Position numbers and translations under genes: made by a program. A stretch of DNA of 35,000 nt from Nanobdellota archaeon (GTDB lineage: Archaea > Nanobdellota > Nanobdellia > SCGC-AAA011-G17 > ARS1403): assembly GCA_018831025.1 (NCBI GenBank), contig JAHJRB010000015.1, forward strand, positions 1 through 35,000, in the 5' to 3' direction. Below, one piece after another: positions 1 through 29,700 of the stretch. How positions within the stretch are numbered: the stretch's first letter is position 1; every line of letters begins with the position of its first letter. The notes under the pieces are model-generated. The model saw only the letters and a program-made list of their open reading frames with translations. It made no database searches and was not told the DNA's origin.

Positions 1-69
1 ATTTTATTAATTTTATTAGCTATTGTTATTTGGTTAGCGATTAAAAAGGTGATAGAAAATGCTTTCTAA
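1..69 (+). CDS. 3' end of a small hydrophobic (single TM helix) protein, truncated by the window edge
   Basis: Frame 1 reads ILLILLAIVIWLAIKKVIENAF* with the stop at 67-69. It resembles the helix plus short tail of the small pilin-like ORFs at 907-1053 and 2544-2732. Confidence 0.3.
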   Translation: MLLILLAIVIWLAIKKVIENAF

Positions 70-910
70 GAAAGGAGAGAGTGCCTCTTATATGGGAGGA
101 AAAACAACAGATATTATCTTAGCTTTAATAGCATTGAGTGTTATTGGATTAGTTCTTTTTGGGTTTTTTGGAAATAGTGATTTTTTTAGTGAATTAACTT
201 GTAAAGTAACTGTTTATATGGCAGACCAAACTGAGAAAGCGCCTATAATAAAATATACACCTTTTACTTTTCCTATTATTTGCTCTACTAAAGATAAAGT
301 TATTGAAGAAGATAATAAGGATAAAATCATGTGGGAAATTGCTGATTATATGAGGAAATGCTGGAGCATGTGGGGAGAAGGAAATTTAAATCCTGCTGGT
401 AAAAATGTTTGGTTTAATGATGAGTTTAAATGTTTCAAATGCTATAGGTTGAGTTTTAATGATTTTGAAGGGATTATAGATGCAAATGAATGGGATGAAT
501 TCTTTAAGGATCCTGAGAAAAGAGTTAAAGGAAGCGACCTAGACTTTTATAATTATTTTAAAGGGAATATATTACTTGGAACTGATGATGAAGGCAATTT
601 TGTTATTGAGAAAGATAAGTATTATGGTGTTACTTTTGTTGAGCATATAGAGAAAGATAGATGGGGAAGATATGTAGCAACAGCGACTACGGGGGCGACC
701 GTTGTTGGAGGAGCATGTATGTTTGTTGTTGGTGTTGGATGGATTGCTAGTCCTCTTTGTGTTTTAGGTGGAGGCGCATTAGGAGCCGGAGCTGCAGCTA
801 TTGAACAGTTTATTGATAAGATTTCTAGTTTGATAGTTGGAGAAGATAAAGATATAATAATGCTTTCAAGATATGAAGATGTTAAAAAATGCGGAGGATA
901 TATTGAATGA
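59..910 (+). CDS. hypothetical membrane protein, Cys-rich ectodomain, Gly/Ala-rich C-terminal TM segments
   Basis: 283-aa ORF with an AGGTGAT Shine-Dalgarno 8 nt upstream. It has an N-terminal TM helix (DIILALIALSVIGLVLFGFF) and a C-terminal hydrophobic G/A-rich region. I recognise no family. Confidence 0.6.
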   Translation: MLSKKGESASYMGGKTTDIILALIALSVIGLVLFGFFGNSDFFSELTCKVTVYMADQTEKAPIIKYTPFTFPIICSTKDKVIEEDNKDKIMWEIADYMRKCWSMWGEGNLNPAGKNVWFNDEFKCFKCYRLSFNDFEGIIDANEWDEFFKDPEKRVKGSDLDFYNYFKGNILLGTDDEGNFVIEKDKYYGVTFVEHIEKDRWGRYVATATTGATVVGGACMFVVGVGWIASPLCVLGGGALGAGAAAIEQFIDKISSLIVGEDKDIIMLSRYEDVKKCGGYIE

Positions 911-1053
911 AAAAAGGAGAATTTGCCTTGAGTAATGTTGCGGGATTATTGCTTGTTTTATTAGCGGCTCTTGTTTTAATATTGTTTATCTATCTTCTTA
1001 GAGATAAAATTAAAGAGATGATAGATATTATGAAAAGCATTTTTGGATTATAA
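907..1053 (+). CDS. small (48 aa) class III signal peptide / pilin-like protein
   Basis: Absent from the ORF track. Its ATG overlaps the upstream TGA (ATGA) and a GGAGGAT SD lies upstream. Translation: MKKGEFALSNVAGLLLVLLAALVLILFIYLLRDKIKEMIDIMKSIFGL*. Confidence 0.5.
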   Translation: MKKGEFALSNVAGLLLVLLAALVLILFIYLLRDKIKEMIDIMKSIFGL

Positions 1054-1055
1054 AA

Positions 1056-2063
1056 ATGGCAGAAGGAGAAGGGATGGGTATTGGAACTTTGGTTAATGCT
1101 ATTGTGATTTTTTTAGTTATAATCGGGGTTATTTGGGTTCATGGAGAAATGTTCGGGGGTTCTAGGAAAGCGTTAGAAGAGTTTTTTGATTTAGGTGAAA
1201 TAAAAAATGTTGCTCAGGATGTTTTTAGTACAGAAAGAGATATTACTTTAAATACTACTCATATAATTGCGGATAAAATTGTAGAATTATTAATGGTGAA
1301 GGAGAATGATTGTTTGATCAATTTAGATTTTAGCGGTTTTGATGATAGTTTTGTTGTTGAGTTTAAAGAAAGTACAACTGGAAATAGTTTGCTGGAAGTT
1401 TCTAAAGGAAGAGTTGCTGTGCAAAGAAGATTGACAAATAATGTATTTTTTATGAATTCAAGAAATTTTAAAATTAAAGAATTTGATAAAATTGAAATTA
1501 ATGGGATAGAATACCCTGTAAAAATTGGGGATAAAATAATCTTATTTAAAGATATAAATTCAAATTTTTATTTCTATGCGGGAAATGAATTGGCAGCAAT
1601 TAGAAATACTAAATTGAGTTGTGGACAGAAAAAAGTATCTGATCAATTGGCTCAACAGAGAATCGAGGGAGGAATAGGTTCAGTAGAATATTATCTTTCT
1701 ATGATGCAAGTTTATTACAATGATGGAAAATATGATAAGGTGCTTGATGCTTATTATTCTCTTTATAGAGGTTCTGAACAAGGAACTTTGGTTGTTAGTG
1801 CTGAACAATTGGAAAAGATGAATACATTATGGATAAATAGTGTTAATCAAATGGGTTCTGGTGCGCGGTATTTATGTGAAGATAAAAATGGAGTTTTTAG
1901 ATGCTTTGATTTTTCATATTATGAATATACAACCAATCTTAGAAATGGTATACTACAAAATTGTAAAGATGAAATTTTAATCCCGGTATCTATTAAGTAT
2001 GGTAATTTGGAAGATTGTGAAAAAGAAAGATTAACTAAGATAGGAATTTTACCAAGAATTTGA
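1056..2063 (+). CDS. hypothetical N-terminally anchored protein
   Basis: 335-aa ORF starting 2 nt after the previous stop, with an N-terminal TM helix (GTLVNAIVIFLVIIGVIWV). I recognise no domain. Confidence 0.6.
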   Translation: MAEGEGMGIGTLVNAIVIFLVIIGVIWVHGEMFGGSRKALEEFFDLGEIKNVAQDVFSTERDITLNTTHIIADKIVELLMVKENDCLINLDFSGFDDSFVVEFKESTTGNSLLEVSKGRVAVQRRLTNNVFFMNSRNFKIKEFDKIEINGIEYPVKIGDKIILFKDINSNFYFYAGNELAAIRNTKLSCGQKKVSDQLAQQRIEGGIGSVEYYLSMMQVYYNDGKYDKVLDAYYSLYRGSEQGTLVVSAEQLEKMNTLWINSVNQMGSGARYLCEDKNGVFRCFDFSYYEYTTNLRNGILQNCKDEILIPVSIKYGNLEDCEKERLTKIGILPRI

Positions 2064-2148
2064 TAAAAAGCATTTATAGAAAACTTTAAATATAAACCAA
2101 ATAATTTAAATAGTAATTAATATTATTAAAATCCAAAGGTGATAATAA

Positions 2149-2529
2149 ATGAATAAAAGAGGTCAAGGTGGACTTTCTATGGATACCATAGTTGTGGCTA
2201 TTATTGCGATTATTGTTTTATTATTAATTGTTACTTTCTTTACTGGTGGTTTAGGAACTATCGGTCAAAAGATTACTGATGTATTTCAAAAAGGGACAGC
2301 AGGATATGATATAGATTTGGCTGTAAAGAACTGTGAAGATTATTGTGCTAGAGCTCAGAGATTGACAGGAGATCCCGCATTGAGAGCAAGTGCTTATTGT
2401 ACACAAACTTTCGATATTGATTTGAATAGGGATAACCAACTTTTGGATGCTGAAAAAGGTCTCAAATGCTATGGTGCTAAATCTGTCCCGGGTGTTAGTT
2501 GCTCTGGAGTAACCTGCCCTGCTACTTAA
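2149..2529 (+). CDS. type IV pilin-like protein (class III signal peptide), Cys-rich; candidate major subunit
   Basis: N-terminus MNKRGQGGLSMDTIVVAIIAIIVLLLIV. An AGGTGAT SD lies 7 nt upstream, TATA-like elements lie at 2071-2095, and a T-run follows the stop. Confidence 0.7.
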   Translation: MNKRGQGGLSMDTIVVAIIAIIVLLLIVTFFTGGLGTIGQKITDVFQKGTAGYDIDLAVKNCEDYCARAQRLTGDPALRASAYCTQTFDIDLNRDNQLLDAEKGLKCYGAKSVPGVSCSGVTCPAT

Positions 2530-2542
2530 TTTTTTTTCTTTT
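2530..2542 (+). terminator. oligo-T tract after the candidate major pilin gene (possible partial terminator)
   Basis: The sequence ttttttttcttttc starts directly after the TAA at 2527-2529. Archaeal terminators are oligo-T runs. Confidence 0.35.
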
Positions 2543-2543
2543 C

Positions 2544-2732
2544 ATGAATAAAAAAGGTTTGGCTTGGGGTATGATTGTAACTGCCATAATTGCGATACTT
2601 GTCTTAGTTATTCTTGTTTGGATTTTTAGAGAACAATTAACTGGAATTTCTGAACAGTTTTTAAACGTTATAAAACAAACTAGTGCAAGTTCTAAGGATT
2701 TTAGTGAAGAAATTAAAAATTTAAATCCTTAG
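2544..2732 (+). CDS. small (62 aa) pilin-like protein (class III signal peptide)
   Basis: This uses the internal ATG of track ORF 2499-2732 and gives MNKKGLAWGMIVTAIIAILVLVILVWIF. The 5' extension from 2499 overlaps the preceding gene and lacks the motif. Confidence 0.6.
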   Translation: MNKKGLAWGMIVTAIIAILVLVILVWIFREQLTGISEQFLNVIKQTSASSKDFSEEIKNLNP

Positions 2733-2780
2733 TAAAATAAAGAAAAATTATATAAAGTTTCTAAGTTAAGATTGTTGAGT

Positions 2781-3266
2781 ATGGGAGACGTTAGTTTAAA
2801 TTATACTGTTACTTTAATTTTAACTTTAATAGCAATTCTTACTTTGGGGGGATGTGTGTATAAAATTTATTATCCTAATTGTGATCCTCAAGCAGTTGAT
2901 AAGTTTAATGAGTTTACTACTTTATTTGAAAGTTGTTTAAATGGTAATTGCGGAGAATTTAATTTTCAAGACATTCCTGAAGGGCATAAGATTGTTTTAA
3001 AATCAAGCGGAACTATTACAGATATAAGATTGAATTGTGGAGGGAGATTTAGTAGTAAACTCAACCAAGCTTATAATGTTGGTTTGTGTACTTATCGTTT
3101 TGGGAAAGATTCATCGGAAAATATAGGAGAGTTTGATATCAGCTATAGTTTAATAGATAGTTTATATTCTTTTAATGGAAATATTAAAATTAGAAAAACC
3201 GAAAATAAAATTTGTATGGATAAAAAAGAAGTTGAGTATAGGTCGGTTATACCGACGCTGAGGTAA
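2781..3266 (+). CDS. hypothetical N-terminally anchored, Cys-containing protein
   Basis: ATG at 2781 (the track starts at TTG 2772). A TATA-like TTATATAA at 2748-2755 lies about 30 nt upstream. TM helix YTVTLILTLIAILTLGG. Confidence 0.55.
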   Translation: MGDVSLNYTVTLILTLIAILTLGGCVYKIYYPNCDPQAVDKFNEFTTLFESCLNGNCGEFNFQDIPEGHKIVLKSSGTITDIRLNCGGRFSSKLNQAYNVGLCTYRFGKDSSENIGEFDISYSLIDSLYSFNGNIKIRKTENKICMDKKEVEYRSVIPTLR

Positions 3267-3267
3267 T

Positions 3268-3648
3268 ATGAATAAAAGAGGTCAAAGTTTAATACAAGTT
3301 GAGACTATAGAATATGTTTTATTGGTTGCTATAGCAATAATGTTGTTTTTTTTATTAAATACAGCAATTGGTATGGAGAAATTTAATGGATTAAGAGCAG
3401 ATGATTTGGCTTTGACTATAAATTCTGTATTTATTCCAAAAGGGAATGTTGCGATTGATTATGAAATGGGAGAAGAAGGCAGGGAGATTAAATTTTATGA
3501 GGGAATTGTTGGAACTTATATTGACGACCCCATTAGAGAAAGTAAAAATTTAGTTTTAGTAGATAGTAATTATATTTTTGAAAGAAGAAATATGAATACT
3601 AATTTGTTGGAAATTACAAAGCAAGGGGATAAGGTTACTGTAAGATGA
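3268..3648 (+). CDS. type IV pilin-like protein (class III signal peptide)
   Basis: N-terminus MNKRGQSLIQVETIEYVLLVAIAIMLFFLL with a GAGGT SD upstream. The first 18 nt are identical to those of the gene at 2149. Confidence 0.7.
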   Translation: MNKRGQSLIQVETIEYVLLVAIAIMLFFLLNTAIGMEKFNGLRADDLALTINSVFIPKGNVAIDYEMGEEGREIKFYEGIVGTYIDDPIRESKNLVLVDSNYIFERRNMNTNLLEITKQGDKVTVR

Positions 3649-4058
3649 ATAAAAAAGGAGGGAGTACATTAGCTAGTAAATCTGGGTTTTATATTATATT
3701 TTTAATACTCTTTACCTTTGCTGTTTTGTACTCTGTTAAATTTATAGAAGATAAAGAAGTAAGAAGAGTTGATTTTTTTCAGTTAGAAGATAGTGTTGTT
3801 ATTAATAGAGTTATTAGTTGCGTATCTAATGATAATTTTGGAGAAATAGATGTAAATAAATTTAATGAAATTGAATTGAGAAAATGTTTGACTAACACTA
3901 ATTTTAATTTTATTATAATGTTGGATACGGTGGATGATCAAAAAATAGTTTCCATTGGAGATGTTGGTCTTGATTATAGGAGCATAGGCAGGTATGTCTT
4001 AGTTGATAATAAAAAAGCTAGAATAAGAGCGGGGTATAGTAAAAATGTTCCCGAGTGA
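3645..4058 (+). CDS. type IV pilin-like protein (class III signal peptide)
   Basis: N-terminus MNKKGGSTLASKSGFYIIFLILFTFAVLY. ATGA overlap with the upstream stop. Confidence 0.7.
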   Translation: MNKKGGSTLASKSGFYIIFLILFTFAVLYSVKFIEDKEVRRVDFFQLEDSVVINRVISCVSNDNFGEIDVNKFNEIELRKCLTNTNFNFIIMLDTVDDQKIVSIGDVGLDYRSIGRYVLVDNKKARIRAGYSKNVPE

Positions 4059-4476
4059 TGTGAAGGATTTAATTACAGCATTTGTTTTGATAGTGATATT
4101 AGTAGCAGGAAGTGCTATTTATCAGACGCTTTATAAAACGGATGAAGTCTTAAAAGAAATTAAAATTAATGATGAACAAGATTTATTTTCTTTGAATTAT
4201 TTGAAAACTAAAATTAGTGATGGAAGTTTAATTAGCGAGTTAATCATTGAATCTGAAAATAATGATGGTGCGTTTGAAACCTTAAAAGATGGAACTGAAG
4301 AGATAATGAATTTTGCATTTGTTGAAGAATATAGCGTAATTATTCTATATCCAACTATTGAAAAAAAATTCGGAGAAGATAATTTTGAAAGATATACTGA
4401 GTTAAAGTTATTTGATAAAGATGAAGAAATGATTTTAGTGAAGGTAGGAGTAAGATTTAAGGAGGGATGGGTGTGA
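4045..4476 (+). CDS. hypothetical N-terminally anchored protein
   Basis: 143-aa ORF overlapping the upstream gene by 14 nt. TM helix LITAFVLIVILVAGSAIY. Confidence 0.55.
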   Translation: MFPSDVKDLITAFVLIVILVAGSAIYQTLYKTDEVLKEIKINDEQDLFSLNYLKTKISDGSLISELIIESENNDGAFETLKDGTEEIMNFAFVEEYSVIILYPTIEKKFGEDNFERYTELKLFDKDEEMILVKVGVRFKEGWV

Positions 4477-5705
4477 ATAAAAAAGGTGTTTATTTTGCAA
4501 GTTTTAGTATTTTATTAGTTATCTTTATGATTATAGGTTACAGTTTTGTTAATGATAGAAAAGAAGCTGAGGCAGGGATAGATGATTTGGGAAAATTTAG
4601 CGTTGGTTTAATTACTTCTAATTTTAATGTTGAGAAATTAAGATTTGAAATTGAAGAGGCGATAAAAATTTCTAAAGAATTAGCTTTAAAAAATATTAAA
4701 GATAATGCGGGGGTTTATGATAAGATTAATTGTGGATTAAATGGGGATTACATAGTTTTAGGAACTGGATGTGATTATTTAAATCCTGAAGAGAATTTTT
4801 ATCATTATTTCAACGATAGTTTTGACAGAACCTTAAAAGGAATAGATCCAAAGTTTAACTCTGATGAATTTAATATTGAAATTTTAAATAATGGTTTAGA
4901 TGTAAAAGGGACTAAAAGAGTTTCATTAGATATTACTAAGGAGATTAAGTCTACAACTAAAAAAACTGTAACTGAAAAAGACTCTTTTAAATTTGATGAA
5001 AAATTAAATTCTGAAATATTGTCTTATATTGAAAGATATAGTCAAGAGTATAATGTACCTGAAGATTTGGTTAAAGCAGTTATAATTAAAGAATCTGGAG
5101 GAAATATTAATGCTGTTGGTTCCAATCCGGATAGTACTGATTATGGATTAATGCAGATAAATAGTAAAGCACATCCTGATTGGTTTGATGGGAGTAGGGG
5201 ATGTAGAGTTAATGAAGATGTTAGTTGTAATATTAAAGCAGGTACTGAAATATTAAAATCAGGTTATGATCGATTTAAGGATGGTAAGACATATACATGC
5301 ACTGGTAAGACTTATACTAACTGGGAAGCTGCTTTGAGAGCTTATAATGGATGGGGATGCTTAAACTTGGATTATGTTGAGAGCGTTTTATCTTTACTAG
5401 GTGAAGAGATTTCTACTTATATTACCCAAGATACTGAAGTTTATAGAGAGAACGTAGGTTATATCGAACTAGATTTAGATTATCATGAAGAGGTAGGCTA
5501 TAATTTTAGAAATATTAATGATGCTATTTTAAGGGGGAGAACTATTAAAGATTGTGTTAATAATGGAGAAGATGTCTTTGTTTGTGCTAGTAGAGAAAAT
5601 GACCTTTTTTTCATTTTTAATGCAAGGATTGAAGGAAACGTGATTAAATTTGATGTTGAAGAGCTAGAAACTGGGGATATAATTAAATTTGCGCTAAATA
5701 TATAA
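4467..5705 (+). CDS. pilin-like N-terminus fused to a lytic transglycosylase (SLT, lysozyme-like) domain
   Basis: The N-terminus (M)GVNKKGVYFASFSILLVIFMII gives MNKKG if GTG 4473 is the start (GTGA overlap, GGAGGGAT SD). SLT motifs are E-S (KESGGN, 5091-5096), GLMQI (about 5145-5159) and AYNGWG (about 5339-5356). Confidence 0.8.
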   Translation: MGVNKKGVYFASFSILLVIFMIIGYSFVNDRKEAEAGIDDLGKFSVGLITSNFNVEKLRFEIEEAIKISKELALKNIKDNAGVYDKINCGLNGDYIVLGTGCDYLNPEENFYHYFNDSFDRTLKGIDPKFNSDEFNIEILNNGLDVKGTKRVSLDITKEIKSTTKKTVTEKDSFKFDEKLNSEILSYIERYSQEYNVPEDLVKAVIIKESGGNINAVGSNPDSTDYGLMQINSKAHPDWFDGSRGCRVNEDVSCNIKAGTEILKSGYDRFKDGKTYTCTGKTYTNWEAALRAYNGWGCLNLDYVESVLSLLGEEISTYITQDTEVYRENVGYIELDLDYHEEVGYNFRNINDAILRGRTIKDCVNNGEDVFVCASRENDLFFIFNARIEGNVIKFDVEELETGDIIKFALNI

Positions 5706-7548: not shown

Positions 7549-7827
7549 ATGGTAGGTAATTTACCAATAAAAAAGTGGAGAGCTGGTTCTATAGAAGGAG
7601 TTGTTTGGTCTAACAAAAGAAATATCGAACGAGATGGGGAGAAAATGGAAGTTGAATTTAAAACAGTAACTTTGAGAAGGAGTTGGAAGGATAGAGACCA
7701 AAACATTTGGAGAGATGAGAAATTAAATTTAAGAAAACAGGACATTCCAAAATTGATGGTTATCCTGAATAAAATGCAGGAAGAACTATTTTTGAGTCAA
7801 AGCGAGGGAGGCGGTGATGATGAGTGA
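7549..7827 (+). CDS. small basic protein with an acidic C-terminal tail; possible PC4/YdbC-like ssDNA-binding protein
   Basis: ATG 7549 lies 7 nt after a GGAGGTG SD (the track starts at GTG 7540). The sequence has alternating beta-like segments ([33 protein letters not shown]), then a helix, then the tail SEGGGDDE. It overlaps the radA start. Confidence 0.6.
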
Positions 7828-10261
7828 AGATAAATTAGAGAAATTACCTGGAGTTGGTGCAGCTACTGCAGAAAAATTAACCCTTGCTGGTTTTGATAAT
7901 TTAATGGCGATTGCTGTTGCTAGTCCTGGTGAATTAGTTGAAGCTGCAGGAGTAACCGAACCTACAGCAAGGAAAATAATTAATGCTGCTAGGGATAAAT
8001 TAAAAATGGGATTTGAAAGCGGAGAAGACTTGCTTAAAAAAAGAGAAGAGATAATTAAGATTAGTACTGGAAGCAAGGCTTTCGATGAATTATTAGGGGG
8101 GGGAATTGAAACAGGAGCAATAACTGAAGCTTACGGTGCATATGGTAGTGGAAAAACTACCTTGGGGCATCAATTATCGGTTAATGTTCAACTACCCATC
8201 GCGGAAGGCGGAGCAGAAGGAATGGCTGTTTGGATTGATTCTGAAGGAACTATAAGACCAGAATATATTAAAAAAATAGCGGAAGCAAAAGGATTAGATG
8301 CGAGCAAAATCTTAAAAAATTTTAGAGGAGTTAGGGCATTTAATTCTGACCATCAGATGTTGCTATCTGAAAAAATTGAAGACTTGATAAAAGACGGATT
8401 GCCAGTTAAATTGTTGATTATTGATTCTTTGATGGGACATTTTAGAAGTGAATTCAGTGGAAGAGGGATGTTGGCTGATAGACAACAAAAACTGAATAAA
8501 CATATGCATAGTTTGCTTAAGTTAGCGCATACCCATAGCATTGCAGTCTATATTACTAATCAAGTAATGGCTAGACCGGATATGTTTTTTGGAGATCCTA
8601 CCGAGGCTATTGGTGGACATGTGTTGGCTCATGCATGCGTAACAGGCGATACATTAATACAGCTTTCGGATGGGGCTATATTGCCAATAGAGAAATTAAA
8701 AGGACCAACTAATTTGATTTCTTTGAATTTAAATGGAGATTTAAAAAATATAAATTCTTTTTGCGATTATGGCTCTATTAGGGATAACATAAGTAAAATA
8801 TTTGAGATTCATACAAATGGGATTATTCAAGCGTCCCCTTTGCATAAATTTTTTAGATTAAATGGATTTTCTATTGAAGAAGTAGAAGCTAAGGAGATAA
8901 AGGTGGGGGATTTTATAGCCTGTCTTAATAACATAAATATTGATGGGGTTGAACAAAGGCTTCCAGAAATAAATGCTAAAGAGATGATAAGTGTTACTAA
9001 ACAAGGTAGCGATTTTATTAAGTATAAACTAGAAGAACTTGATTTGAGTAGGGAAGATGTTTGCAAGAATTTGAATATAAACCCAAGACAGTTACGCAGA
9101 GTGTTGAATCAGGAATATGCTACCGATGTTAATAATATAAATTTGCTAGTCAAGCAAGGTGTTAATGAAAATATCTATGAATTTATAGAACCACATACAT
9201 CTAATAAGTTTAGGGAAATTACAATCCCAAAAACGTTGAATTTAGAATTATCCCAGATTTTGGGTTATTTCATTGGTGATGGGAATATTGATGAATTTGG
9301 CATAAGATTTAAGGATGAAAGGATAGAAGTTTTAGAGGTCTATAATAAACTTTTTAAAAAGTTGTTTAATTTAAACGGGAAGATTTGTAAAGTAAAAGAT
9401 AAGAATTGCTACAATTTAGATATTAATAGTATTGCCGTAAAAAACTTATTTACTGAGATTTTAGATGATGTTTTTTTATACATTTCAAGATCTACAAAAA
9501 AACATATTGCAGCTTTTATTAGAGGTTTTATGGATGCGGAGGGGTATGTTAGTAAAAAAAGAGCAAGAATAACAATTGGACAAAAGAATAATTTGACCTT
9601 GAGATATTTGCAGATGTTACTTTTGAGATTAGGCATTAGAAGTAATTTAAGAAAAACTAATGGAAAAAAGATTTTTAGCTATCTAATTTTTGATGGGCAA
9701 TATTTTTTAAGATTTGCAAAGACTATTGGGGTCACTGCGAGTGATAAGAGAAAACTTCTTGAAAAGCAAATAAAATATTGTGAAAATGATGTAATTTTTA
9801 ATAGAGACTTATTGCCCGTTGAAAGAAAGTTTATTTGGGGTCTTATTAAAGAGATGGGTTTGTCTCCCTCTAAACATATTAAACCTAGACCCTCTGGCTA
9901 TAGATTCTTGAGCAGAGACAATGCAAGAAAGTTGTTGGTTACATTAGAAGGCATAAATGTAAATAATAATAAAATTAAAAATAACCTTAATTTTTTGAAA
10001 TCGTTAATTGATGGAGATGTAAGACTTGAAGAAGTAAAAAGAATTGACATTAAGAAAAATAATGAACCTTTGTATGATATTAGTGTACCTGTTGTAGAGA
10101 ATTATATTGCAAATGGTTTTGTTGTGCATAACTCAACATACAGAGTTTATTTGAGACGAGGCAAAAAAGGAACTAGGGTTGCTAAATTAGTTGATGCTCC
10201 CGCATTGCCGGAAAGCGAGGCTATCTTTATAGTGACGGAAGAGGGAATTAAAGACGTATAA
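7814..10261 (+). CDS. radA: DNA repair and recombination protein RadA, interrupted by an intein
   Basis: It has an N-terminal HhH ([15 protein letters not shown]), Walker [10 protein letters not shown] and Walker [16 protein letters not shown]...GGHVLAHA precedes the intein and [30 protein letters not shown] follows it. The exteins sum to 316 aa. Confidence 0.95.
8636..10132 (+). mobile_element. 499-aa intein with a LAGLIDADG homing endonuclease domain
   Basis: It starts with Cys ([13 protein letters not shown]) and ends VVHN, followed by +1 Ser. Block B is SPLH. The LAGLIDADG motifs are [10 protein letters not shown] and [12 protein letters not shown]. Block F is [16 protein letters not shown]. 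Confidence 0.9.
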
Positions 10262-10267
10262 ATAAAC

Positions 10268-10372
10268 GCTCCCGCGCGGATTTGAACCGCGGATTTCAAG
10301 GTTTTTGCTCTGGACCGCAACTTCGCAGATTTTTGAATCTCTTGCGTTCTATCCAAGCTAAACTACGGGAGC
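10268..10372 (-). tRNA. tRNA gene with about 31 extra nt in the anticodon region (intron-containing; isotype unresolved)
   Basis: The reverse complement gives acceptor GCTCCCG/CGGGAGC, D arm GTTT-AGCTTGGATA-GAAC and T arm CGCGG-TTCAAAT-CCGCG. The variable loop is AAATC and the presumptive anticodon stem is CAAGA/CCTTG, with 38 nt between its strands. No CCA is encoded. Confidence 0.7.
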
Positions 10373-11436: not shown

Positions 11437-11991
11437 ATGGTTAATGAAATTGAAGAAAAATTAAAAGGAATGAGTAAAGAAGAGATTCAAGAGTTAGTAA
11501 AAAAACAGTGTTTGTTCTGCAATATTGTTAATGGGAATATAGAATCTTACAAAGTTTATGAAGATGATAATGTTATGGGTGTTTTAGATATTAATCCAGC
11601 TAATAAAGGACATGTTATACTTTTTCCTAAAGAACATTTACAATTCTTGAATGATTTAGATGAGAAATTATTAGGACATTTATTTGATGTTGTAAATAAG
11701 CTAAGCAATAAAATGATTGATAGATTAAAAGCGAGCGGGATTAATATTTATATTGCAAGCGGACAAGGTGCCGGACAGAATTTACCGCATATAGCTGTGC
11801 ATGTTATTCCAAGATATGAAAATGATAAAATTGCTTTTGGCTGGAATCCTAAAAAATTAAACAAAAATGATTTTGAAAATATCACTAAGGAATTAAAAAC
11901 AAATAAAATTTCTAAAATTGAAGTTAAGAAAGTTAAAAAAATAAAACCTAAAGTTGTAAAGGCAAAGAAATTTGAAGAAAGAGTGCCTTAA
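11437..11991 (+). CDS. HIT-family (histidine triad) nucleotide hydrolase with a Lys-rich C-terminal tail
   Basis: CLFCNIV, DINPANKGHVILFPKEH and the histidine triad HIAVHVIPR are present. Confidence 0.85.
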   Translation: MVNEIEEKLKGMSKEEIQELVKKQCLFCNIVNGNIESYKVYEDDNVMGVLDINPANKGHVILFPKEHLQFLNDLDEKLLGHLFDVVNKLSNKMIDRLKASGINIYIASGQGAGQNLPHIAVHVIPRYENDKIAFGWNPKKLNKNDFENITKELKTNKISKIEVKKVKKIKPKVVKAKKFEERVP

Positions 11992-12866
11992 AGGAAATAA
12001 GAAATTATATTTCCAAAAATTAAAGAAATTATTGTTGCAATTAAAAATGTTGGGGTGAATATTATCCCTTCTTTTATCTCTACTTTCTGAATTTTATTCT
12101 TTTTGAGCAAGGATATCTGCTCTTTATTTAACCCATACATAGGAATTTTTAAAAGTAGTTTGCTGTTTTTGTAAATGTTTTTTGTTAACCAATCACCCTC
12201 TATTAACTCAGAAGGTTTTATGGTTTTGTACATGCAACTTTTTTCCACAGACTTTATGTAAATCCAAAGATACAAGAATAATAAAATAGCGATAGCAATA
12301 AAAAAGAGACTTATTCTTGATAAAAAATTATTTACAATTATTGCAAGCACTATTAACAATATCGAAAGAATTAAAATTATTTTTCTTGGATTCTTTGTTT
12401 TCTTCAAATAAAGATTATACTCTCTTAAAAAATCTTTTTTATGTTTTAGAGATATATAGATTGTGAAAATTAAACTATATATCATCCCTATGATTAAAAT
12501 ATTTAAGAAGATTATTGCCGGGAAATAAATATTATCTAATCTTGGAGAGAAAATGTTTAATAATTGCTTTGGATATGTTGCAAATACTACTGATAATGCC
12601 ATTAGTAATTTAGCATCTCCTCCCCCCCATTGTTTAGAGTAAAACATAATATTGCCGATTAAATAAAAAATTACAAGATTAATTAATGCTATTTTTATAT
12701 AAAAGAAGTCATTATAGGTTATTGAGTATAAAGCTCTTAATGATAATCCAGAGGCTATTAATGAGAAATTCAGCCAGTCTGGTATTTCTGTTGTTTTTTT
12801 ATCAGAGTATGTTGCAATTAATAATCCTGCTAATCCTAAAATTAAAAGTATTAAATCTATAACCAT
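11988..12866 (-). CDS. A24-family archaeal prepilin/preflagellin peptidase (PibD/FlaK/EppA-like)
   Basis: The first catalytic Asp context is ATYSDKKTTEIPDW and the second is GGGDAKLLMAL (GxGD). The protein is polytopic, with an extra soluble segment before the last TM helix. Confidence 0.8.
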   Translation of the reverse strand: MVIDLILLILGLAGLLIATYSDKKTTEIPDWLNFSLIASGLSLRALYSITYNDFFYIKIALINLVIFYLIGNIMFYSKQWGGGDAKLLMALSVVFATYPKQLLNIFSPRLDNIYFPAIIFLNILIIGMIYSLIFTIYISLKHKKDFLREYNLYLKKTKNPRKIILILSILLIVLAIIVNNFLSRISLFFIAIAILLFLYLWIYIKSVEKSCMYKTIKPSELIEGDWLTKNIYKNSKLLLKIPMYGLNKEQISLLKKNKIQKVEIKEGIIFTPTFLIATIISLIFGNIISYFL

Positions 12867-13820: not shown

Positions 13821-14984
13821 ATGTTGAAGAAAAGAGGTCAGGCTGGTAATATAGCAACTTTGATTTCTTTAATTGCTCTTTTTATGATAATCTATATTTT
13901 ATTACTGCCGCAGGAAGCAAGGGATGAATTGTTGAATAGAGAAGATGGAATTCCTCAACATATGACGGATGGGATTTCTAGCCAAATTTTATTTTCAAAA
14001 GAAATTGGGGAAGTAAGTCCTTTAAAACAAAGTAGAGGGACTATTCATACTATTTCAGGGGTTAATTTATTTAGTAATGTTGAAAGTGAGATTATAACAT
14101 TGGCTAATAACATTTTAGTTAATAAAGGAATAATAAGTGAAAATTCTCAAAAATTAGTTTTTTATTTAGAATATCCTGAAGATGTTGAGAAATCTGAGTT
14201 ATATCTAATTATTGATAATGCTGTTGGTAATTTAGTTGTTAGTTTGAATGGTTATGAAATTTTTAATAAAGCTGTTAAGAGCAATAGTCAAGAACTTTTA
14301 GAAATGCCGGTCGGTTATTTGAGAGAAACAAATACAATTGAATTAAGTTCTGCAGCTCCTTTTTTGAGGAGTAGTATGCATGAGTTAAAATCTGTTAGAC
14401 TAAGAAAACAAGTTGAGATTAAAAACAAACAATCAACAAGAATACTTTCAATTCCTGCAAGTGAAATAAAGGATTTAGAAAAAGCTATTTTGAGTTTTTC
14501 AGTATATTGCAGCAGAAATGAAGATCAATTGTTGAATCTAAAACTAAATGGAAAATTAGTTTATAGTGATGTTCCTTTCTGTAACTTACAAAGAACTGAA
14601 ATAGAGATAGATTCTTCATTTATTAATAGTGGAGTAAATGAATTAATTCTTGAGAGTGAAGGGGATTATACATTAGAGCAGGTAGAATGGGAAAGTTTGT
14701 TGAGGGGGGAGCGAGCTAGCGAATATGCATTCACAATTAGCGATGATGATTATAATGATGTTAGAAGAGGATTGAAAGATGTATTTGTTGTATTTGATTT
14801 TGCTCTTAGCGATGAAAGAAAGATAATGGAGTTTTATGTTAATGATAAAAAATTTGATATTGATACTAGTGAAAATTCTTACTTTATGACTATTTCTGAC
14901 TACTTAGAAAAAGGTGGAAACTTAATCAGGTTAAGACCAAAAAACAGCTTTGAAATTATTGAAATGAGAGTAGAGCTGGAGTAA
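13821..14984 (+). CDS. large class III signal peptide (pilin-like N-terminus) surface protein
   Basis: N-terminus MLKKRGQAGNIATLISLIALFMIIYILL. The 387-aa body has no domain that I recognise. Confidence 0.7.
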   Translation: MLKKRGQAGNIATLISLIALFMIIYILLLPQEARDELLNREDGIPQHMTDGISSQILFSKEIGEVSPLKQSRGTIHTISGVNLFSNVESEIITLANNILVNKGIISENSQKLVFYLEYPEDVEKSELYLIIDNAVGNLVVSLNGYEIFNKAVKSNSQELLEMPVGYLRETNTIELSSAAPFLRSSMHELKSVRLRKQVEIKNKQSTRILSIPASEIKDLEKAILSFSVYCSRNEDQLLNLKLNGKLVYSDVPFCNLQRTEIEIDSSFINSGVNELILESEGDYTLEQVEWESLLRGERASEYAFTISDDDYNDVRRGLKDVFVVFDFALSDERKIMEFYVNDKKFDIDTSENSYFMTISDYLEKGGNLIRLRPKNSFEIIEMRVELE

Positions 14985-14986
14985 AA

Positions 14987-16327
14987 ATGGCTGAAAGTGT
15001 AGGCGGGGGGAATCCAAAGGGAGTTAAACAAATTCTCGTAGAAGGAGCTAAGGAAGGGGTTCAGAAAAGAGTTGAGAATAAAGTTGCTGGAAGTGGATCT
15101 AGTAGTCCATCTGTTAGTAGCGTTAGTAGCGGGGGTGCAAGCAAGTTTCTAATTTTTTTGATTTTTTTAATTATTGGAGGTTATTTTCTTTGGCCAACTG
15201 TTACTGATTGTATGGAAAGCGGTTTTTGTAAAACAAGAATAATAGAACCGGTTAAGACTGCTTTTAAACCAGTTGGAGAAACGTTTAGCTTTATTGGCAA
15301 GCAGGCAGGAGAAAGTGCTGCTATAATCCGTGGGGAGAAGACTTTTAGTTGGGAGGGAGATGTTGAAGAAAGAAAAAAAGCAGGCATTTGGTTTGAAGGA
15401 GGAAAAACTTATGGAATAACTTTATCTGAGACTGAGTCTGGAGTTGTTGAAACTTTAAGCGGAGAGTTTGGAGCAGTTATTGATGTTGTTGTTGGAAAAA
15501 TTGATGAGAACTTAAAAGAAATAGAAGCGAATATTGGTTGCAGTTTAGAAGAACATGAAGGAATTATAAGAGGAAATCCAGAAGGAAAATTAATTTTAGA
15601 TAATCCCTATCCTGAAGATGAGAGAACATATAGAGGAAGTGATTGTGTTTTTACCGAAGATCCAAATGTTTTAATAAAGAAAAAAGTGGATAAAGATCAG
15701 GTTTATTTTTTGAGTAAAGTTATTTTTAATTTAAATTATTCCTTAAATCCTGAAGTTTATTTGCCTGTGTTTGTTATACCGAAGAAGGAGATTTATGATG
15801 AATTTAGAGGAAGACCAGATGAAGCTTTTAAAGAACTAGCATTTGGACAATATAAAGAGTATAGTTCAGATGTAAGATCTGGGGGGATTAAATCAACTAT
15901 GATTTATATGGCCAATGTGGGAGTTGTTATGAGACTTGTTAATCAACCACTTGGGCTAAATGTAGATCAAATTTTCGGAGTACAATTCAGAAATAAAGAT
16001 ATAAAAAATAAAGCTAGTTTTAAGGGATTTGTTTTTACACTTCCAGATGGTCTAAATATTGGGGGGAGTGCAAAAGTTAGTGGAGGGGATGTTTGTGATT
16101 ACTTTGAACCTGTTGGTACAAGGAGTTATAAATTTAAAGAAGAGTTCTTTGATAGAATAAGCAAACAGTTGAATACGATAGATGGAGAGACAGACTTGTT
16201 CCTATGTAAAGTTGATATTGATAATGCATTTTCAGAAGCTTCTGAAGAATTGGCTAATCTTGGAGATATTGAAGGTAAGCTAAGTTATGACTATACTATC
16301 AGTGAAGAAGTTACCATAAGTAATTAG
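14987..16327 (+). CDS. hypothetical membrane-anchored protein (Ser-rich linker, one TM helix, large ectodomain)
   Basis: 446-aa ORF starting 2 nt after the upstream stop. It has a SGSSSPSVSSVSSGG linker, then the helix FLIFLIFLIIGGYFLW, and the C-terminal motif KLSYDYTISEEVTIS. Confidence 0.6.
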   Translation: MAESVGGGNPKGVKQILVEGAKEGVQKRVENKVAGSGSSSPSVSSVSSGGASKFLIFLIFLIIGGYFLWPTVTDCMESGFCKTRIIEPVKTAFKPVGETFSFIGKQAGESAAIIRGEKTFSWEGDVEERKKAGIWFEGGKTYGITLSETESGVVETLSGEFGAVIDVVVGKIDENLKEIEANIGCSLEEHEGIIRGNPEGKLILDNPYPEDERTYRGSDCVFTEDPNVLIKKKVDKDQVYFLSKVIFNLNYSLNPEVYLPVFVIPKKEIYDEFRGRPDEAFKELAFGQYKEYSSDVRSGGIKSTMIYMANVGVVMRLVNQPLGLNVDQIFGVQFRNKDIKNKASFKGFVFTLPDGLNIGGSAKVSGGDVCDYFEPVGTRSYKFKEEFFDRISKQLNTIDGETDLFLCKVDIDNAFSEASEELANLGDIEGKLSYDYTISEEVTISN

Positions 16328-16333
16328 AAAGTT

Positions 16334-16342
16334 TTTTATATA
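16334..16342 (+). promoter_or_regulatory. TATA box (GAAAGTTTTTTATATA context)
   Basis: It lies about 27 nt upstream of ATG 16366. Confidence 0.45.
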
Positions 16343-16365
16343 TTCTATAGTATATTAAAGTCTAT

Positions 16366-17316: not shown

Positions 17317-17332
17317 AAAAGGAGGTAAAAAA

Positions 17333-23931: not shown

Positions 23932-24252
23932 ATGGATATTAATGAGGCGTTTAAAAGAAGAATTGAGGAAATAAAAGACTTTGGAGAAGAAGATGTTGCT
24001 AAGGAAAAATTTGCTGAATTGTGGTTGTTGTTTAGTAAAACTAATAAAGAATTTTTAAAAAATGAAGTTATTGAAAATATTCAAGACTTAAGAGCAAAGA
24101 TTGAAATTACTGGAATTAAAAACAAACTTGAAGAAGCAGAAAAAAAAGAAAGAAAAATAAAAAAAGTAGATAACTTTAATGATCTTTGTAATCTTATGAA
24201 ATATTCTAAATTTGATGAGGCCATAAAGAAGTTTAATGAAAGAAGAAAATAA
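23932..24252 (+). CDS. hypothetical charged/coiled-coil protein
   Basis: 106-aa K/E-rich ORF. I recognise no family. Confidence 0.4.
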   Translation: MDINEAFKRRIEEIKDFGEEDVAKEKFAELWLLFSKTNKEFLKNEVIENIQDLRAKIEITGIKNKLEEAEKKERKIKKVDNFNDLCNLMKYSKFDEAIKKFNERRK

Positions 24253-27041: not shown

Positions 27042-27076
27042 AAAAATATATAATATAACTTAAGTATATTCTCTTT

Positions 27077-29418: not shown

Positions 29419-29700
29419 ATGGAAACCAAGTCAATTAATTATGTTCTCTTTATTGTAGTTTTTGTTTTAGCTCTAAATTTGGTTTATCCTTTAGGGAGAG
29501 CGTATGGTAAATTAACCTTTGGGGATCTTGGATGCGAAATTAATGGAGCTTATGTTGATGATGCAAATTTATGCTGTCATGAAATGGGGAGATTTCCGGG
29601 TTGTTTTGATAATAAATGCGATTCAGATAATTATCAAATAGTTGCTAATAAACAAATGTTTAGATATTGCAAAGCGAGCGGTTATGATGTTAGATATTAA
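29419..29700 (+). CDS. small secreted Cys-rich protein
   Basis: 93-aa ORF with the signal/anchor YVLFIVVFVLALNLVYPLG and 7 Cys in the mature part. It overlaps the GH3 gene start. Confidence 0.5.
   Translation: METKSINYVLFIVVFVLALNLVYPLGRAYGKLTFGDLGCEINGAYVDDANLCCHEMGRFPGCFDNKCDSDNYQIVANKQMFRYCKASGYDVRY

Follow-up and report, generated by a model that had tools for sequence, protein, structure and literature searches.

Exchangeable peptidoglycan hydrolase modules in a DPANN archaeal pilin-like gene cluster: a possible pilus-linked device for breaching bacterial walls

The operons of bacterial transport machines include genes for specialised lytic transglycosylases and for NlpC/P60 hydrolases. 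In Sulfolobus, functional proteins other than pilins have been established to carry class III signals (PMC3047682). SLT domains in archaea of the kind studied here have been taken to be directed against bacterial walls (PMC8204110, PMC9723730), and in the literature we found no prior description tying DPANN SLT proteins to pili. We analysed a 35,000-nt stretch of DNA (hereafter, the window) whose first 5,705 nt would represent the pilin-encoding half of a complete locus for a type IV filament (an archaeal type IV pilus), from a Woese-/Pace-/Nanoarchaeota (DPANN) archaeon. The initial annotation of this region had proposed a pilus or pseudopilus cluster of major and minor pilin-like genes ending in a pilin-anchored muralytic enzyme, and every comparative test that we ran supported that reading. 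We consider it probable that the region belongs to an archaeal type IV filament locus whose peptidoglycan hydrolases are modular, ride on pilin-like proteins, and are directed against foreign, bacterial walls.

Positions 1–5705 are filled by 11 co-directional ORFs on the + strand, rather than the 12 counted previously. The junctions, read from the sequence, were as described before: the genes at 907, 3645, and 4473 start in ATGA/GTGA overlaps, the one at 4045 overlaps its predecessor by 14 nt, and gaps of 1–2 nt lie at 1054–1055 and 3267, with SD-like GGTGAT or GGAGG sequences 5′ of gene starts. The cluster had been called translationally coupled on the whole; the overlaps and short gaps are present, but gaps of 85, 14, and 48 nt divide the genes into approximately three blocks. 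The near identity of some 5′ ends also held, the 18-nt string ATGAATAAAAGAGGTCAA being the same at 2149 and 3268. A single N-terminal hydrophobic segment was seen in all of the products (Kyte-Doolittle), and family and structure searches with the cluster ectodomains returned no match to any characterised pilus protein, in agreement with the earlier impression.

Eight of the 11 ORFs start with an M(x)[KR][KR]G leader that runs into a hydrophobic helix; among the 47 ORFs in the rest of the window, one does. The six ORFs originally credited with the motif do have it, but so do 59–910 and 1–69. When a strict definition was applied (M, up to five residues, [KR][KR]G, and a TM segment within 12 residues), the motif was found in 6 of the 10 mechanically called cluster ORFs vs. 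1 of 47 outside (Fisher p = 3.8e-5), a 69-fold enrichment. It is kept in orthologues at 25–50% identity, and the Gly/Ala right behind the basic pair is kept across families at 22–50% identity. In 11 distant loci, the interval from the platform gene to the peptidase gene contains 6 to 11 ORFs that satisfy the motif test (six each in L012 and L034). The strict FlaFind-type pattern, which we take to be [KR][GA][ALIFQMVED][ILMVTAS]x3, is matched by two of the eight N-termini, and several products have 5–12 polar residues between the leader Gly and the hydrophobic stretch. None of the Pfam class III or pilin models matched a cluster product above its cut-off; the one exception, a match to Flp1_like, was sub-threshold. 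A 387-aa product encoded outside the cluster and near the peptidase gene (13821–14984, + strand; start MLKKRGQAGNIATLISLIALFMIIYILLLP) had no family match and is a possible further substrate.

The reported lack of an assembly ATPase and a platform protein is correct for the window, but both are encoded directly upstream of the cluster on the near-identical contig L001; the motor is missing from the window because the window edge cuts the locus. The L001 ATPase is of the FlaI/TadA/GspE2 type (PF00437, 2e-13; FlaI model, 1.6e-35; PDB 2oap, 4e-28, with CpaF and FlaI also matched). The 697-aa protein with eight TM segments is tentatively assigned as the platform from its position and topology; it had no PDB match and no detectable internal repeat, and one of nine orthologues matched T2SSF (E = 0.0015). 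A prepilin peptidase had been proposed at 11988–12866 (− strand), approximately 6 kb downstream of the cluster, and this A24 (FlaK/PibD-type) assignment was borne out by PF01478 (47.7 bits; cut-off, 26.5) and by the presence of both catalytic Asp motifs, D22 and GGGD81–84, while the match to the NCBIfam FlaK model (1.7e-14) fell far below the equivalog cut-off. This enzyme presumably processes the [KR]G leaders. Its gene lies directly 3′ of the pilin cluster in L006, L008, and at least 10 other loci. Gene order is kept as a unit across divergent genomes, with a 14-gene block adjoining RPA, RadA, and aEF-1β in Woese-/Pace-/Nanoarchaeota MAGs. Seven loci (L003, L004, L090, L095, and L098–L100) have this order at 36–57% protein identity, and L096 and L097 have it with NlpC/P60 instead of SLT in the last gene. 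Wherever the length of a locus allows a judgement, the pilin-like genes are linked to those for the ATPase, the putative platform, and the peptidase.

The first gene 3′ of the putative platform gene has only its 3′ part in the window (1–69); it is complete on L001 (7811–7921), where it reads MRKRGYIESKTVVIILLILLAIVIW... and encodes a 36-aa pilin-like product, MRKRGYIESKTVVIILLILLAIVIWLAIKKVIENAF. Its orthologues in L003 and L004 begin with MRKG and MKKKG, respectively, and a 35–36-aa gene is present at this place in L095 and L096. The next product, p283 (59–910), is a conserved pilin-like accessory protein with an MLSKKG leader, a TM helix at 19–37, a Cys-rich ectodomain containing MRKCWSMWGEG..EFKCFKCYR, and a Gly-rich hydrophobic C-terminal region. 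K4, G6, and eight Cys are invariant in its family and K5 is nearly so. It has no match in Pfam or NCBIfam, and its AF2 model is poor. Homologues formed 1,693 representative clusters at E ≤ 1e-3, with a [KR][GA]+TM N-terminus in 115 of the 148 best matches, and tblastn matches occurred in 15 loci, typically ~2 kb 5′ of the SLT gene in T4P loci. Two further helix-dominated pilin-like products are encoded at 907–1053 (48 aa, MKKG|EFALSNVAGLLLVLL..., a helix with a short tail; orthologue leaders end in LKKG or NKKG) and at 2544–2732 (62 aa, MNKKG|LAWGMIVTAIIAILVLVILVW..., conserved in L003 and L004). The latter is Flp1-like, matching PF16982 at E = 7e-6 but under the gathering cut-off, and its L099 orthologue reached E ≤ 1e-5. 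Minor pilin-like proteins with the leader motif are encoded at 3268–3648 (126 aa, MNKRG|QSLIQVETIEYVLLVAIAIM...; 125–127 aa in eight of the nine loci of the sub-type and 122 aa in L100) and at 3645–4058 (137 aa, MNKKG|GSTLASKSGFYIIFLILF...). The remaining single-pass membrane proteins, p335 (1056–2063), p161 (2781–3266), and p143 (4045–4476), are without a [KR]G leader. The L003 orthologue of p335 begins with MKMNKKG; p335 itself matched no Pfam or NCBIfam model. The Cys-rich p161 has orthologues ranging from 150 to 295 aa among loci.

The candidate major pilin (126 aa, 2149–2529) has the leader MNKRG, followed by QGGLSMDTIVVAIIAIIVLLLIVTFFTGG and a small head with six conserved Cys (columns at 90–100%). 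With 72 homologue clusters at 48–83% identity, it is the most conserved component of the locus, and its homology to the L087 pilin extends along the whole protein. Its N-terminal ~60 aa are nearly invariant while the Cys-rich C-terminal head is variable, which is the classic pattern of a polymerising major pilin. The gene is flanked by its own upstream gap and by the T-run on which the initial annotation had remarked. The 85-nt gap (2064–2148) contains a TATA-like TTTAAATA at 2086–2093 and an SD-like GGTGAT at 2138–2143, and is likely to be an internal promoter for the pilin gene. The run, T8CT4C (2530–2543), lies directly 3′ of the stop codon. Archaeal transcription termination occurs at oligo-T, and the run may be a partial terminator of this type; we found no bacterial-type hairpin terminator.

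The last ORF (4473–5705) encodes a predicted modular pilin-like peptidoglycan hydrolase of 410 aa, with an alternative ATG start at 4467 (MGVNKKG). An (M)NKKG leader and a hydrophobic helix (aa 3–29) are followed by an N-domain of a long helix and β-sheet (aa 37–165), an intact SLT/lysozyme-fold domain (aa ~180–309; nt ~5010–5399), and a C-terminal α/β domain (aa 317–409). The SLT domain recognised earlier was confirmed by PF01464 (aa 185–293; 58.5 bits; cut-off, 21.3; 5.9e-16). Within it E207, GLMQIN 225–230, and AYNGWG 290–295 are invariant, and the ES, GLMQ, and AYNxG motifs are invariant in 20 sequences with identity down to 22%. Foldseek matches of the fold (AF2 mean pLDDT of the protein, 81.9) included MltE, Slt70-type enzymes, MltC, and g-type lysozymes. 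Whether the chemistry is that of a lytic transglycosylase is uncertain, since the window subfamily carries an Asp (D223) where hen lysozyme has D52; the GH23/GH22 fold also covers chitinases and hydrolytic lysozymes.

The enzyme module is swappable between loci. Among orthologous loci picked by pilin homology, the same N-terminal carrier bears SLT in the window, L003, L004, L095, and L098, NlpC/P60 in L096 and L097 (52.5 and 46.8 bits; cut-off, 23; DCSG Cys and HVG(I/V)Y His present), and no enzyme in L099 and L100. Because the carrier occurs in sister lineages with NlpC/P60 or with nothing, it would seem to serve as the structural part and the hydrolase as a replaceable effector, and the two enzyme-less loci indicate that the machine can do without wall cutting. 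More distant loci have SLT on at least three other pilin-like carriers, one of which, in L087, duplicates the major pilin at 53% identity, head domain included. The arrangements comprise a C-terminal fusion to carrier A, an insertion into carrier B (residues 1–74 and 263–367 of the L034 protein match a 176-aa L037 protein), a fusion to carrier C, and the L087 fusion. Two unrelated peptidoglycan-specific hydrolase folds share one slot, which points to peptidoglycan as the target, and the module appears to be selected for being pilin-borne. Both the NlpC/P60 replacement and the L087 fusion strengthen the earlier notion of a cell-wall-breaching device. That relatives encode another wall-cutting enzyme at this position, or lack one, suggests that the pilus is linked to a means of breaching bacterial walls.

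Our data show the gene content, its synteny, the motifs, the identity of the domains, and the exchange of modules; from these we infer leader cleavage, polymerisation, a place on the filament, the substrate, and a biological target, in the following course of events. The peptidase would take off the short M(N)K[KR]G leaders, and the ATPase and platform would lift the mature subunits from the membrane by their hydrophobic N-terminal helices and polymerise the conserved 126-aa pilin into a filament, with p283, the 3268 and 3645 products, and the small 36-, 48-, and 62-aa proteins as minor or priming subunits. The last subunit, a carrier with a peptidoglycan-cleaving module, would be displayed on the outside of the cell, the most plausible site being the filament tip or its vicinity, where SLT would cut the glycan strands of a contacted bacterial wall. 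If so, opening of the sacculus could serve tight attachment, access to the host membrane, or scavenging of muropeptides.

We weighed three other explanations of the cluster. The N-termini could be plain signal anchors, basic because of the positive-inside rule and of a genome that is AT-rich (30% GC) and rich in Lys codons, and substrates of neither the peptidase nor the ATPase machine. The departure of most leaders from the FlaFind-type pattern and the lack of above-threshold pilin matches would fit, but we regard this as highly improbable given the enrichment of the motif in the cluster, the conserved Gly/Ala, and the constant association with genes for the ATPase, the putative platform, and the peptidase. 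A housekeeping role, in which the hydrolase locally opens the producer’s own wall polymer for pilus assembly in the manner of bacterial VirB1, R64 PilT, and BfpH, also seems quite unlikely. It draws on the wall enzymes of bacterial transport machines, which are often dispensable, as the enzyme-less L099 and L100 would allow; the best NCBIfam match of the SLT domain is the T3SS protein IagB, and the PDB matches of the NlpC/P60 orthologue include wall hydrolases of Tn916-like conjugative elements. The PgaC/NodC-like GT2 encoded in the window might make a GlcNAc polymer, so that a self-made polymer is a possible substrate. However, murein transglycosylases are described in the literature as “normally absent in Archaea” and read as aimed at bacteria, the 35-kb window contains no mur-type genes, and we know of no murein synthesis in archaea of these lineages. 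NlpC/P60 is a peptidoglycan endopeptidase that cuts peptide stems, which poly-GlcNAc and chitin lack, and we know of no pilin-like N-terminus among bacterial housekeeping wall enzymes.

The same ATPase, platform, and peptidase could instead build a short, envelope-embedded, pseudopilus-like structure or anchored surface proteins, comparable to the bindosome of Sulfolobus with its class III sugar-binding proteins, with the hydrolase acting at the archaeal surface or contact zone and no long filament. Several features are compatible with such an assembly, which we consider possible but rather doubtful: the ATPase scores against the bindosome BasE model (3.9e-16, far below the cut-off), many products (p283, p335, p161, and p143) are large or have no clean leader, and a 410-aa three-domain subunit is bulky for a filament body. 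By contrast, the small pilin is very strongly conserved and combines an invariant N-terminal helix with a variable head, as is typical of polymerising major subunits, and the SLT carrier in L087 is nearly a copy of it. The type IV filament reading also accommodates the 36–62-aa helix-only proteins, which are similar to Flp-type filament subunits.

All six N-termini quoted in the initial annotation for the cluster at 1-5705 were reproduced from the ORF list and the raw sequence: MKKGEFALSNV... at 907, MNKRGQGGLSMDTIVV... at 2149, MNKKGLAWGMIV... at 2544, MNKRGQSLIQVE... at 3268, MNKKGGSTLASK... at 3645 and, from a GTG start, (GTG)NKKGVYFASFS... at 4473 (all on the forward strand). Our recount gave 11 ORFs in this interval instead of the 12 genes claimed, and two of the ORFs thought to lack the motif do carry a leader, namely 59-910 (MLSKKG) and the truncated 1-69, the full product of which is MRKRGYIESKTVVIILLILLAIVIW.... 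A basic leader ending in Gly and followed by a membrane helix is present in 8 of the 11 products, and this feature is kept in orthologues of the cluster products. When a strict mechanical motif test was applied, 6 of the 10 called cluster ORFs carried the motif vs. 1 of the 47 ORFs outside the cluster (Fisher P = 3.8e-5); a strict FlaFind-type pattern fits only two of the eight leader-bearing products. Kyte-Doolittle analysis of the ten full-length ORFs (all but 1-69) gave a single N-terminal hydrophobic segment per product.

The junctions were as described: genes overlap by ATGA/GTGA at 907, 3645 and 4473 and by 14 nt at 4045, and are 1-2 nt apart at 1054-1055 and 3267. SD-like GGTGAT/GGAGG sequences lie upstream of the cluster starts. 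Translational coupling is broken by three intergenic gaps of 85, 14 and 48 nt. A TATA-like TTTAAATA lies within the 85-nt gap, 5' of the gene for the 126-aa pilin (2149-2529), and we found the T8CT4C run 3' of this gene's stop codon and the identical 18-nt string at 2149 and 3268 that had been noted before. Lying on either side of the pilin gene, the promoter-like gap and the T-run could give an excess of its transcript. A bacterial promoter/terminator scan returned 33 sites vs. 31.8 expected, and no hairpin terminators.

Comparison of related loci showed that the gene order is kept as a unit in divergent genomes. The order is ATPase–platform–36 aa (1-69)–p283 (59-910)–48 aa (907)–p335 (1056-2063)–pilin (2149-2529)–62 aa (2544)–p161 (2781-3266)–126 aa–137 aa–143 aa (4045-4476)–last gene (4473-5705)–RPA–YdjM, and it recurs in full in L003, L004, L090, L095, L096, L097, L098, L099 and L100, loci that differ in assembly and biome (groundwater, TARA ocean and others); for the last gene, protein identities are 36-57%. 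We conclude that the cluster is real and conserved. An origin from a mobile element or virus was rejected, as the cluster is syntenic with RPA, YdjM, RadA and aEF-1β across divergent genomes. The non-SLT products gave no match above threshold in Pfam or NCBIfam, in agreement with the earlier statement that their ectodomains fall into no recognized family; the 62-aa protein matched Flp1_like below threshold, and no Pfam pilin model scored above threshold on any cluster product.

By far the most conserved component is the 126-aa pilin (72 clusters, 48-83% identity). Near-invariance of the first ~60 residues (MNKRGQGGLSMNTII.AIIAIIVLLLIVTFFTGG...) is combined with variation in a short, Cys-rich C-terminal head, as would be expected of a polymerizing major subunit, for which this protein is the candidate. 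A profile of the pilin family had no match among PDB sequences even at E<=10. The p283 protein belongs to a large unannotated family of 1693 representative clusters at E<=1e-3, and among the best 148 of these 1693 clusters, 115 have an N-terminus with [KR][GA] and a TM segment. K4, G6 and eight Cys residues are invariant in its close relatives, with K5 nearly so, and the public copy differs from the window protein at two residues. The AF2 model of p283 reached a mean pLDDT of 56.7, and its Foldseek matches were noise (probability <=0.03). Scanning metagenomes with the p283 alignment yielded six loci, too few for an unbiased frequency of the enzyme in the locus. One 1.1-Mb contig (Ga0209042_1000001; L094, 9001-10594) encodes two adjacent p283-like genes with no ATPase, platform or SLT match within 10 kb, so the p283 family is not confined to this locus type. 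With about 1700 representative clusters, p283 enlarges the inventory of archaeal type IV filament components with an uncharacterized pilin-like family.

The initial annotation had found no assembly ATPase or platform gene. This is correct for the window itself but not for the locus, in which the ATPase gene and a putative platform gene stand directly upstream; their absence is an artefact of the window edge, as can be seen in L001, a 99%-identical 44.5-kb contig that we found by look-up of the 126-aa pilin and that extends further upstream (window position 1 is L001 position 7853). The ATPase (750 aa; L001 3430-5682, directly upstream of window position 1) was recognized by PF00437 (2e-13, 50.2 bits, cut-off 24.9), by FlaI (1.6e-35) and TadA (6.7e-33) as top NCBIfam models, both under their equivalog cut-offs, and by PDB matches to A. 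fulgidus GspE2 (2oap, 4e-28), CpaF (1.3e-19) and FlaI (7.7e-16). Its match to the BasE (bindosome) model was weak (58.9 bits against a cut-off of 1000). An ATPase of this PilB/FlaI/TadA (T2SSE) family is encoded with the pilins in all long related loci; in L096 (2336-6100, 1254 aa) it holds an intein with a LAGLIDADG domain.

Immediately after the ATPase gene in L001 is a gene for a 697-aa protein with eight predicted TM segments, which we take from its position, size and topology to be a putative platform, an assignment weakly supported by sequence: a match to T2SSF (E=0.0015, 18.9 bits, cut-off 25.2) appeared in one of nine orthologues, neither phmmer nor a profile found a PDB match, and hhalign of the N-terminal against the C-terminal half showed no internal repeat. 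The A24 prepilin peptidase reported at 11988-12866(-) was upheld by PF01478 (47.7 bits, cut-off 26.5) and by the presence of Asp22 and GGGD81-84, and its gene is directly 3' of the pilin cluster in L006, L008 and other related loci. Two divergently transcribed genes for coiled-coil proteins (about 210 and 116 aa) are found 5' of the ATPase gene in every locus examined (L001 198-3376). In L001, this pair is separated from the ATPase gene by inserted genes for an AsnC-type regulator and an IS605 OrfB/TnpB; the TnpB was judged a local insertion upstream of the ATPase gene. Judged by the sequences of its ATPase, peptidase and class III-type subunits, the cluster is a type IV filament system.

The SLT domain assigned to the 410-aa product of the last gene (4473-5705) was confirmed at residues 185-293 (PF01464, 58.5 bits). 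Among 20 family members, down to 22% identity, E207-S208, G225-L-M-Q228(-I/V-N) and A290-Y-N-G-W-G295 are invariant or nearly so, as is the N-terminal NK[KR]G. As modelled by AF2 (mean pLDDT 81.9), the protein comprises a membrane helix (residues 3-29), a long helix (37-77) packed on a beta-sheet (88-165; pLDDT ~90), a lysozyme-fold domain (~180-309) and a confident C-terminal alpha/beta domain (317-409). Foldseek matched the model to MltE, Slt70-type enzymes, MltC and MltF (probability 1.0), and further to g-type lysozymes, a GH23 chitinase and the phi6 lysin, all through the enzyme domain only. The protein has both the motif and the lysozyme fold of family 1 lytic transglycosylases (SLT, GH23). 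Its part N-terminal to the enzyme is compatible with a pilin-like module, although matched to none. A profile of the full-length protein had no PDB match at E<=1e-3; the isolated SLT domain gave weak lysozyme matches there, and its top NCBIfam match was IagB.

Lytic transglycosylases cleave non-hydrolytically, giving 1,6-anhydroMurNAc, and have no second catalytic acid. In the window subfamily, KESGGN..STDYGLMQIN aligns with E35...D52 of c-type lysozyme (PDB lysozyme matches; PF00062, E=0.0014), with an Asp at the D52 position that is missing from SSxGLMQIN of the broader family. The enzyme may thus equally well act as a hydrolytic lysozyme or as a lytic transglycosylase; either would attack the same bond in murein.

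Pilin homology, independent of SLT, was used to pick six loci (L095-L100). The gene order of the window is found in all six, which differ in what the last gene encodes: an SLT protein in L095 (414 aa) and L098 (419 aa), an NlpC/P60 protein in L096 (328 aa) and L097 (316 aa; PF00877, 52.5 and 46.8 bits, respectively, cut-off 23), and a protein with no enzyme domain in L099 (246 aa) and L100 (245 aa). The NlpC/P60 proteins contain the catalytic Cys in DCSG and the His in HVG(I/V)Y, and their PDB matches include wall hydrolases of Tn916-like conjugative elements. All six last-gene proteins start M(N)K[KR]G, followed by ..FATxSVLxVF.., and share the N-terminal domain of the window protein (L099 vs. 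window residues 1-136, E=1.5e-11; L096 vs. residues 1-71, E=2e-6).

More distant loci have SLT on other pilin-like carriers, each of which is also found without it. One carrier (KKGDIxITILVIG...) has a C-terminal SLT in L037, L031, L006 and L078 and none in L034 and L038. A second (KRGDKILSIYWFAIL...) has SLT inserted in L034 between residues 1-74 and 263-367, both of which match a 176-aa L037 protein, and a third (KKGNILVENVIFI...) occurs with SLT in L038, L030 and L073 and without it in L037. The SLT protein of L087 combines an N-terminal pilin module with a separate effector module: within its first 105 residues, the stretch 3-105 shares 53% identity (6e-34) with the stand-alone pilin that this locus also encodes, and this stand-alone pilin has full-length homology to the 126-aa pilin of the window. 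The L087 contig (JAHYJW010000004.1) is labelled 'Patescibacteria group bacterium' yet encodes RadA, RPA, aEF-1β and an archaeal pilus locus; mis-binning of a DPANN contig is almost certain. As read from these alignments, the enzyme is an exchangeable module on pilin-like carriers. The use of two unrelated peptidoglycan-specific folds in one slot, together with the repeated fusion of SLT to carriers, argues for selection on a peptidoglycan hydrolase delivered by the pilus machinery.

Scanning genomes with the SLT-protein alignment returned 80 loci, nearly all of them in Woesearchaeota, Pacearchaeota and Nanoarchaeota MAGs, and the SLT proteins fell into two classes. Class 1 consists of giants (1000-3200 aa) that have Sec-like signals and are not encoded near any ATPase, platform or peptidase gene. 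Those of class 2 are 245-425 aa, lie inside a pilus locus and have [KR][GA] pilin-type leaders; the ATPase and platform genes are 7-9 kb upstream, a p283 homologue is typically about 2 kb upstream and the A24 peptidase gene is 1.2-6.1 kb downstream. Between the platform and peptidase genes, eleven class 2 loci encode 6-11 ORFs with [KR][GA] and a TM segment (six each in L012 and L034). In the distant locus type, the interval from the last pilin gene to the peptidase gene encodes a conserved, very basic peptide of 37-41 aa (..EKRNKKKDKKREKKKHPYK.GG..R..; L006 13029-13151, L037 11444-11566, L038 9511-9636, L078 12648-12761 and others); a search of the window found none.

The window has a GC content of about 30% and encodes the archaeal markers RadA, RPA, aEF-1β, aIF2α, PAC2, archaeal signal peptidase I, GINS, TruD and PCNA. 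A bacterial (CPR) origin was rejected because RadA, RPA, aEF-1β, aIF2α, GINS, PCNA and the archaeal signal peptidase are among its products. RadA (7814-10261(+), 815 aa) contains an intein with a LAGLIDADG endonuclease, and a 106-nt Rfam tRNA match at 10267-10372(-) (44 bits), missed by ARAGORN, is probably an intron-containing archaeal tRNA. Class III-like N-termini also occur outside the cluster, at 13821-18265(+) and 34867-35000(+), none with a family match. The former interval is a run of four unknown secreted or anchored proteins headed by a 387-aa protein starting MLKKRGQAGNIATLISLIALF...; two of the four have a Cys after the N-terminal hydrophobic stretch (..VGASC and ..GQEGC) that is possibly lipobox-like. 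The latter is an ORF running off the window end that contains ..FNKRGQVTMFIILGILIVII. The interval 24236-28291(+) encodes two large polytopic membrane proteins that have a YYY-type domain at the C-terminus and, after them, a PgaC/IcaA/NodC-type GT2 (166 bits, under the equivalog cut-off); these genes may serve the archaeon's own synthesis of a GlcNAc-containing surface polymer. The product of 29642-30778(+) is a membrane-anchored NagZ-type GH3 (PF00933, 2.5e-35; NCBIfam beta-N-acetylhexosaminidase, 1.4e-23); speculatively, it could process muropeptides released by the SLT enzyme by removing GlcNAc. The HEPN (PF05168, 2e-30) and minimal nucleotidyltransferase (PF01909, 2.6e-13) pair at 33854-34512(-) is a typical toxin-antitoxin arrangement.

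In the likeliest mechanism, drawn from established type IV filament biology, the A24 peptidase would remove the M(N)K[KR]G leaders. The ATPase and platform would pull the subunits out by their N-terminal helices and polymerize the 126-aa pilin, and the other pilin-like proteins would, by analogy with bacterial minor pilins, prime assembly and end at the tip; the main text of PMC8179133 has modular pilins thought to do likewise. The last carrier would show its hydrolase at the tip or contact zone, and the hydrolase would cut the wall of a pilus-bound bacterial cell. The scheme is weakest at four points, each of them a prediction: cleavage of the leaders, existence of a filament, location of the enzyme and identity of its substrate. 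We tentatively propose, as one possible reading, that Woese-, Pace- and Nanoarchaeota have a dedicated type IV pilus that is a contact-dependent anti-bacterial wall-drilling organelle, with tip minor pilins carrying interchangeable SLT/lysozyme (glycan) or NlpC/P60 (stem peptide) enzymes that are swapped to match the host wall.

The genes might instead specify a bindosome-like or pseudopilus-like surface assembly with no long filament. We regard this as a rather unlikely but plausible reading of the gene content. We consider it quite improbable that the hydrolase remodels the producer's own wall: the PgaC/NodC-like GT2 in the window would fit such a role, but murein synthesis is not known in these archaea, and peptide stems are needed for NlpC/P60 to act. 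That the N-termini are plain signal anchors is hardly credible, being contradicted both by the conservation of the motif and by its conserved linkage to the machine genes.

Woesearchaeota and Pacearchaeota are among the most abundant uncultured archaea of groundwater and sediments. To our knowledge, SLT genes were the only prior hint that some of them target bacteria. As predicted here, the locus ties wall-cutting enzymes to a conserved pilus machine and offers a concrete, testable mechanism for cross-domain cell-cell interaction of ultra-small archaea with bacteria. If the wall-drilling proposal is true, many of these abundant ultra-small archaea would live across the domain boundary as episymbionts or predators of bacteria, and the type of host could be predicted from the enzyme module in the genome. 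The conserved 126-aa pilin, the 410-aa enzyme and the cognate peptidase are defined reagents for antibodies, activity assays and in-situ labelling.

Archaeal type IV pili include Epd of Methanococcus, Aap and Ups of Sulfolobales and PilA of Haloferax. The window system resembles them in its FlaI/TadA-family ATPase, its putative TadC/FlaJ-like membrane partner, its A24 peptidase and its several pilins, the leaders of which are short and basic. The Gln at +1 of the main pilin (KRG|Q) recalls EppA-type substrates. Unlike in those systems, no pilin or accessory family here matches a described one (Pfam, NCBIfam, PDB), the ATPase has an N-terminal part about 200 aa longer than that of FlaI, and the platform is barely recognizable by sequence. 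SLT, transglycosylase and peptidoglycan are unmentioned in two archaeal type IV censuses (PMC4858521 and bioRxiv 10.64898/2026.04.22.720090), and a full-text literature search found no paper tying DPANN SLT or NlpC/P60 proteins to pili. The Sulfolobus bindosome (Bas), in which functional non-filament proteins have class III signals and depend on their own PilB/PilC-like pair, is the precedent for archaeal cargo with a pilin leader (PMC3047682); however, its cargo consists of sugar-binding proteins for uptake, not hydrolases, and it has no conserved major pilin of the window's kind. The class 1 giants have already been described (fam00969; Castelle et al. 2021, PMC8204110; Vigneron et al. 2022, PMC9723730), with bacterial peptidoglycan as their proposed target. 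The window system shares that proposed target, the Woese- and Pacearchaeota lineages and the SLT/GH23 domain (27-47% identity over the domain), but its protein is 410 aa in a pilus locus and does not belong among the giants. Pili and pilin are not mentioned in Castelle et al. (PMC8204110), nor are pili or pilus in Vigneron et al. (PMC9723730).

Bacterial modular pilins, in the main text of Raynaud et al. 2021 (PMC8179133), consist of an N-terminal pilin module, with its class III leader, and a grafted effector that is thought to be tip-exposed, as in S. sanguinis PilB with its vWA module and PilC with its lectin module, and many architectures are known, including predicted peptidases. Neither an SLT, lysozyme or NlpC/P60 module nor an example from archaea is mentioned in that text, and the roles demonstrated in it are adhesion, unlike the enzymatic attack proposed here. 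As in modular pilins, the effector here is exchanged between carriers, one of which is a copy of the major pilin, yet modular pilins are defined by the IPR012902 N-methylation motif, to which we found no match. The proteins described here are the first archaeal candidates for enzymatic modular pilins.

Bacterial machine operons encode hydrolases such as VirB1 (T4SS), IagB/IpgF (T3SS), R64 PilT and BfpH (type IVb pili) and the NlpC/P60 enzymes of Tn916/ICE. The likeness lies in a lysozyme-fold or NlpC/P60 enzyme encoded within a machine operon. Those enzymes, however, open the producer's own sacculus and use Sec or lipoprotein signals, whereas here the producer is an archaeon presumed to be murein-free and the enzyme has a pilin-type N-terminus. 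The window system works like both modular pilins and machine-operon hydrolases, yet its archaeal origin, different leader and presumably foreign target make it a member of neither class.
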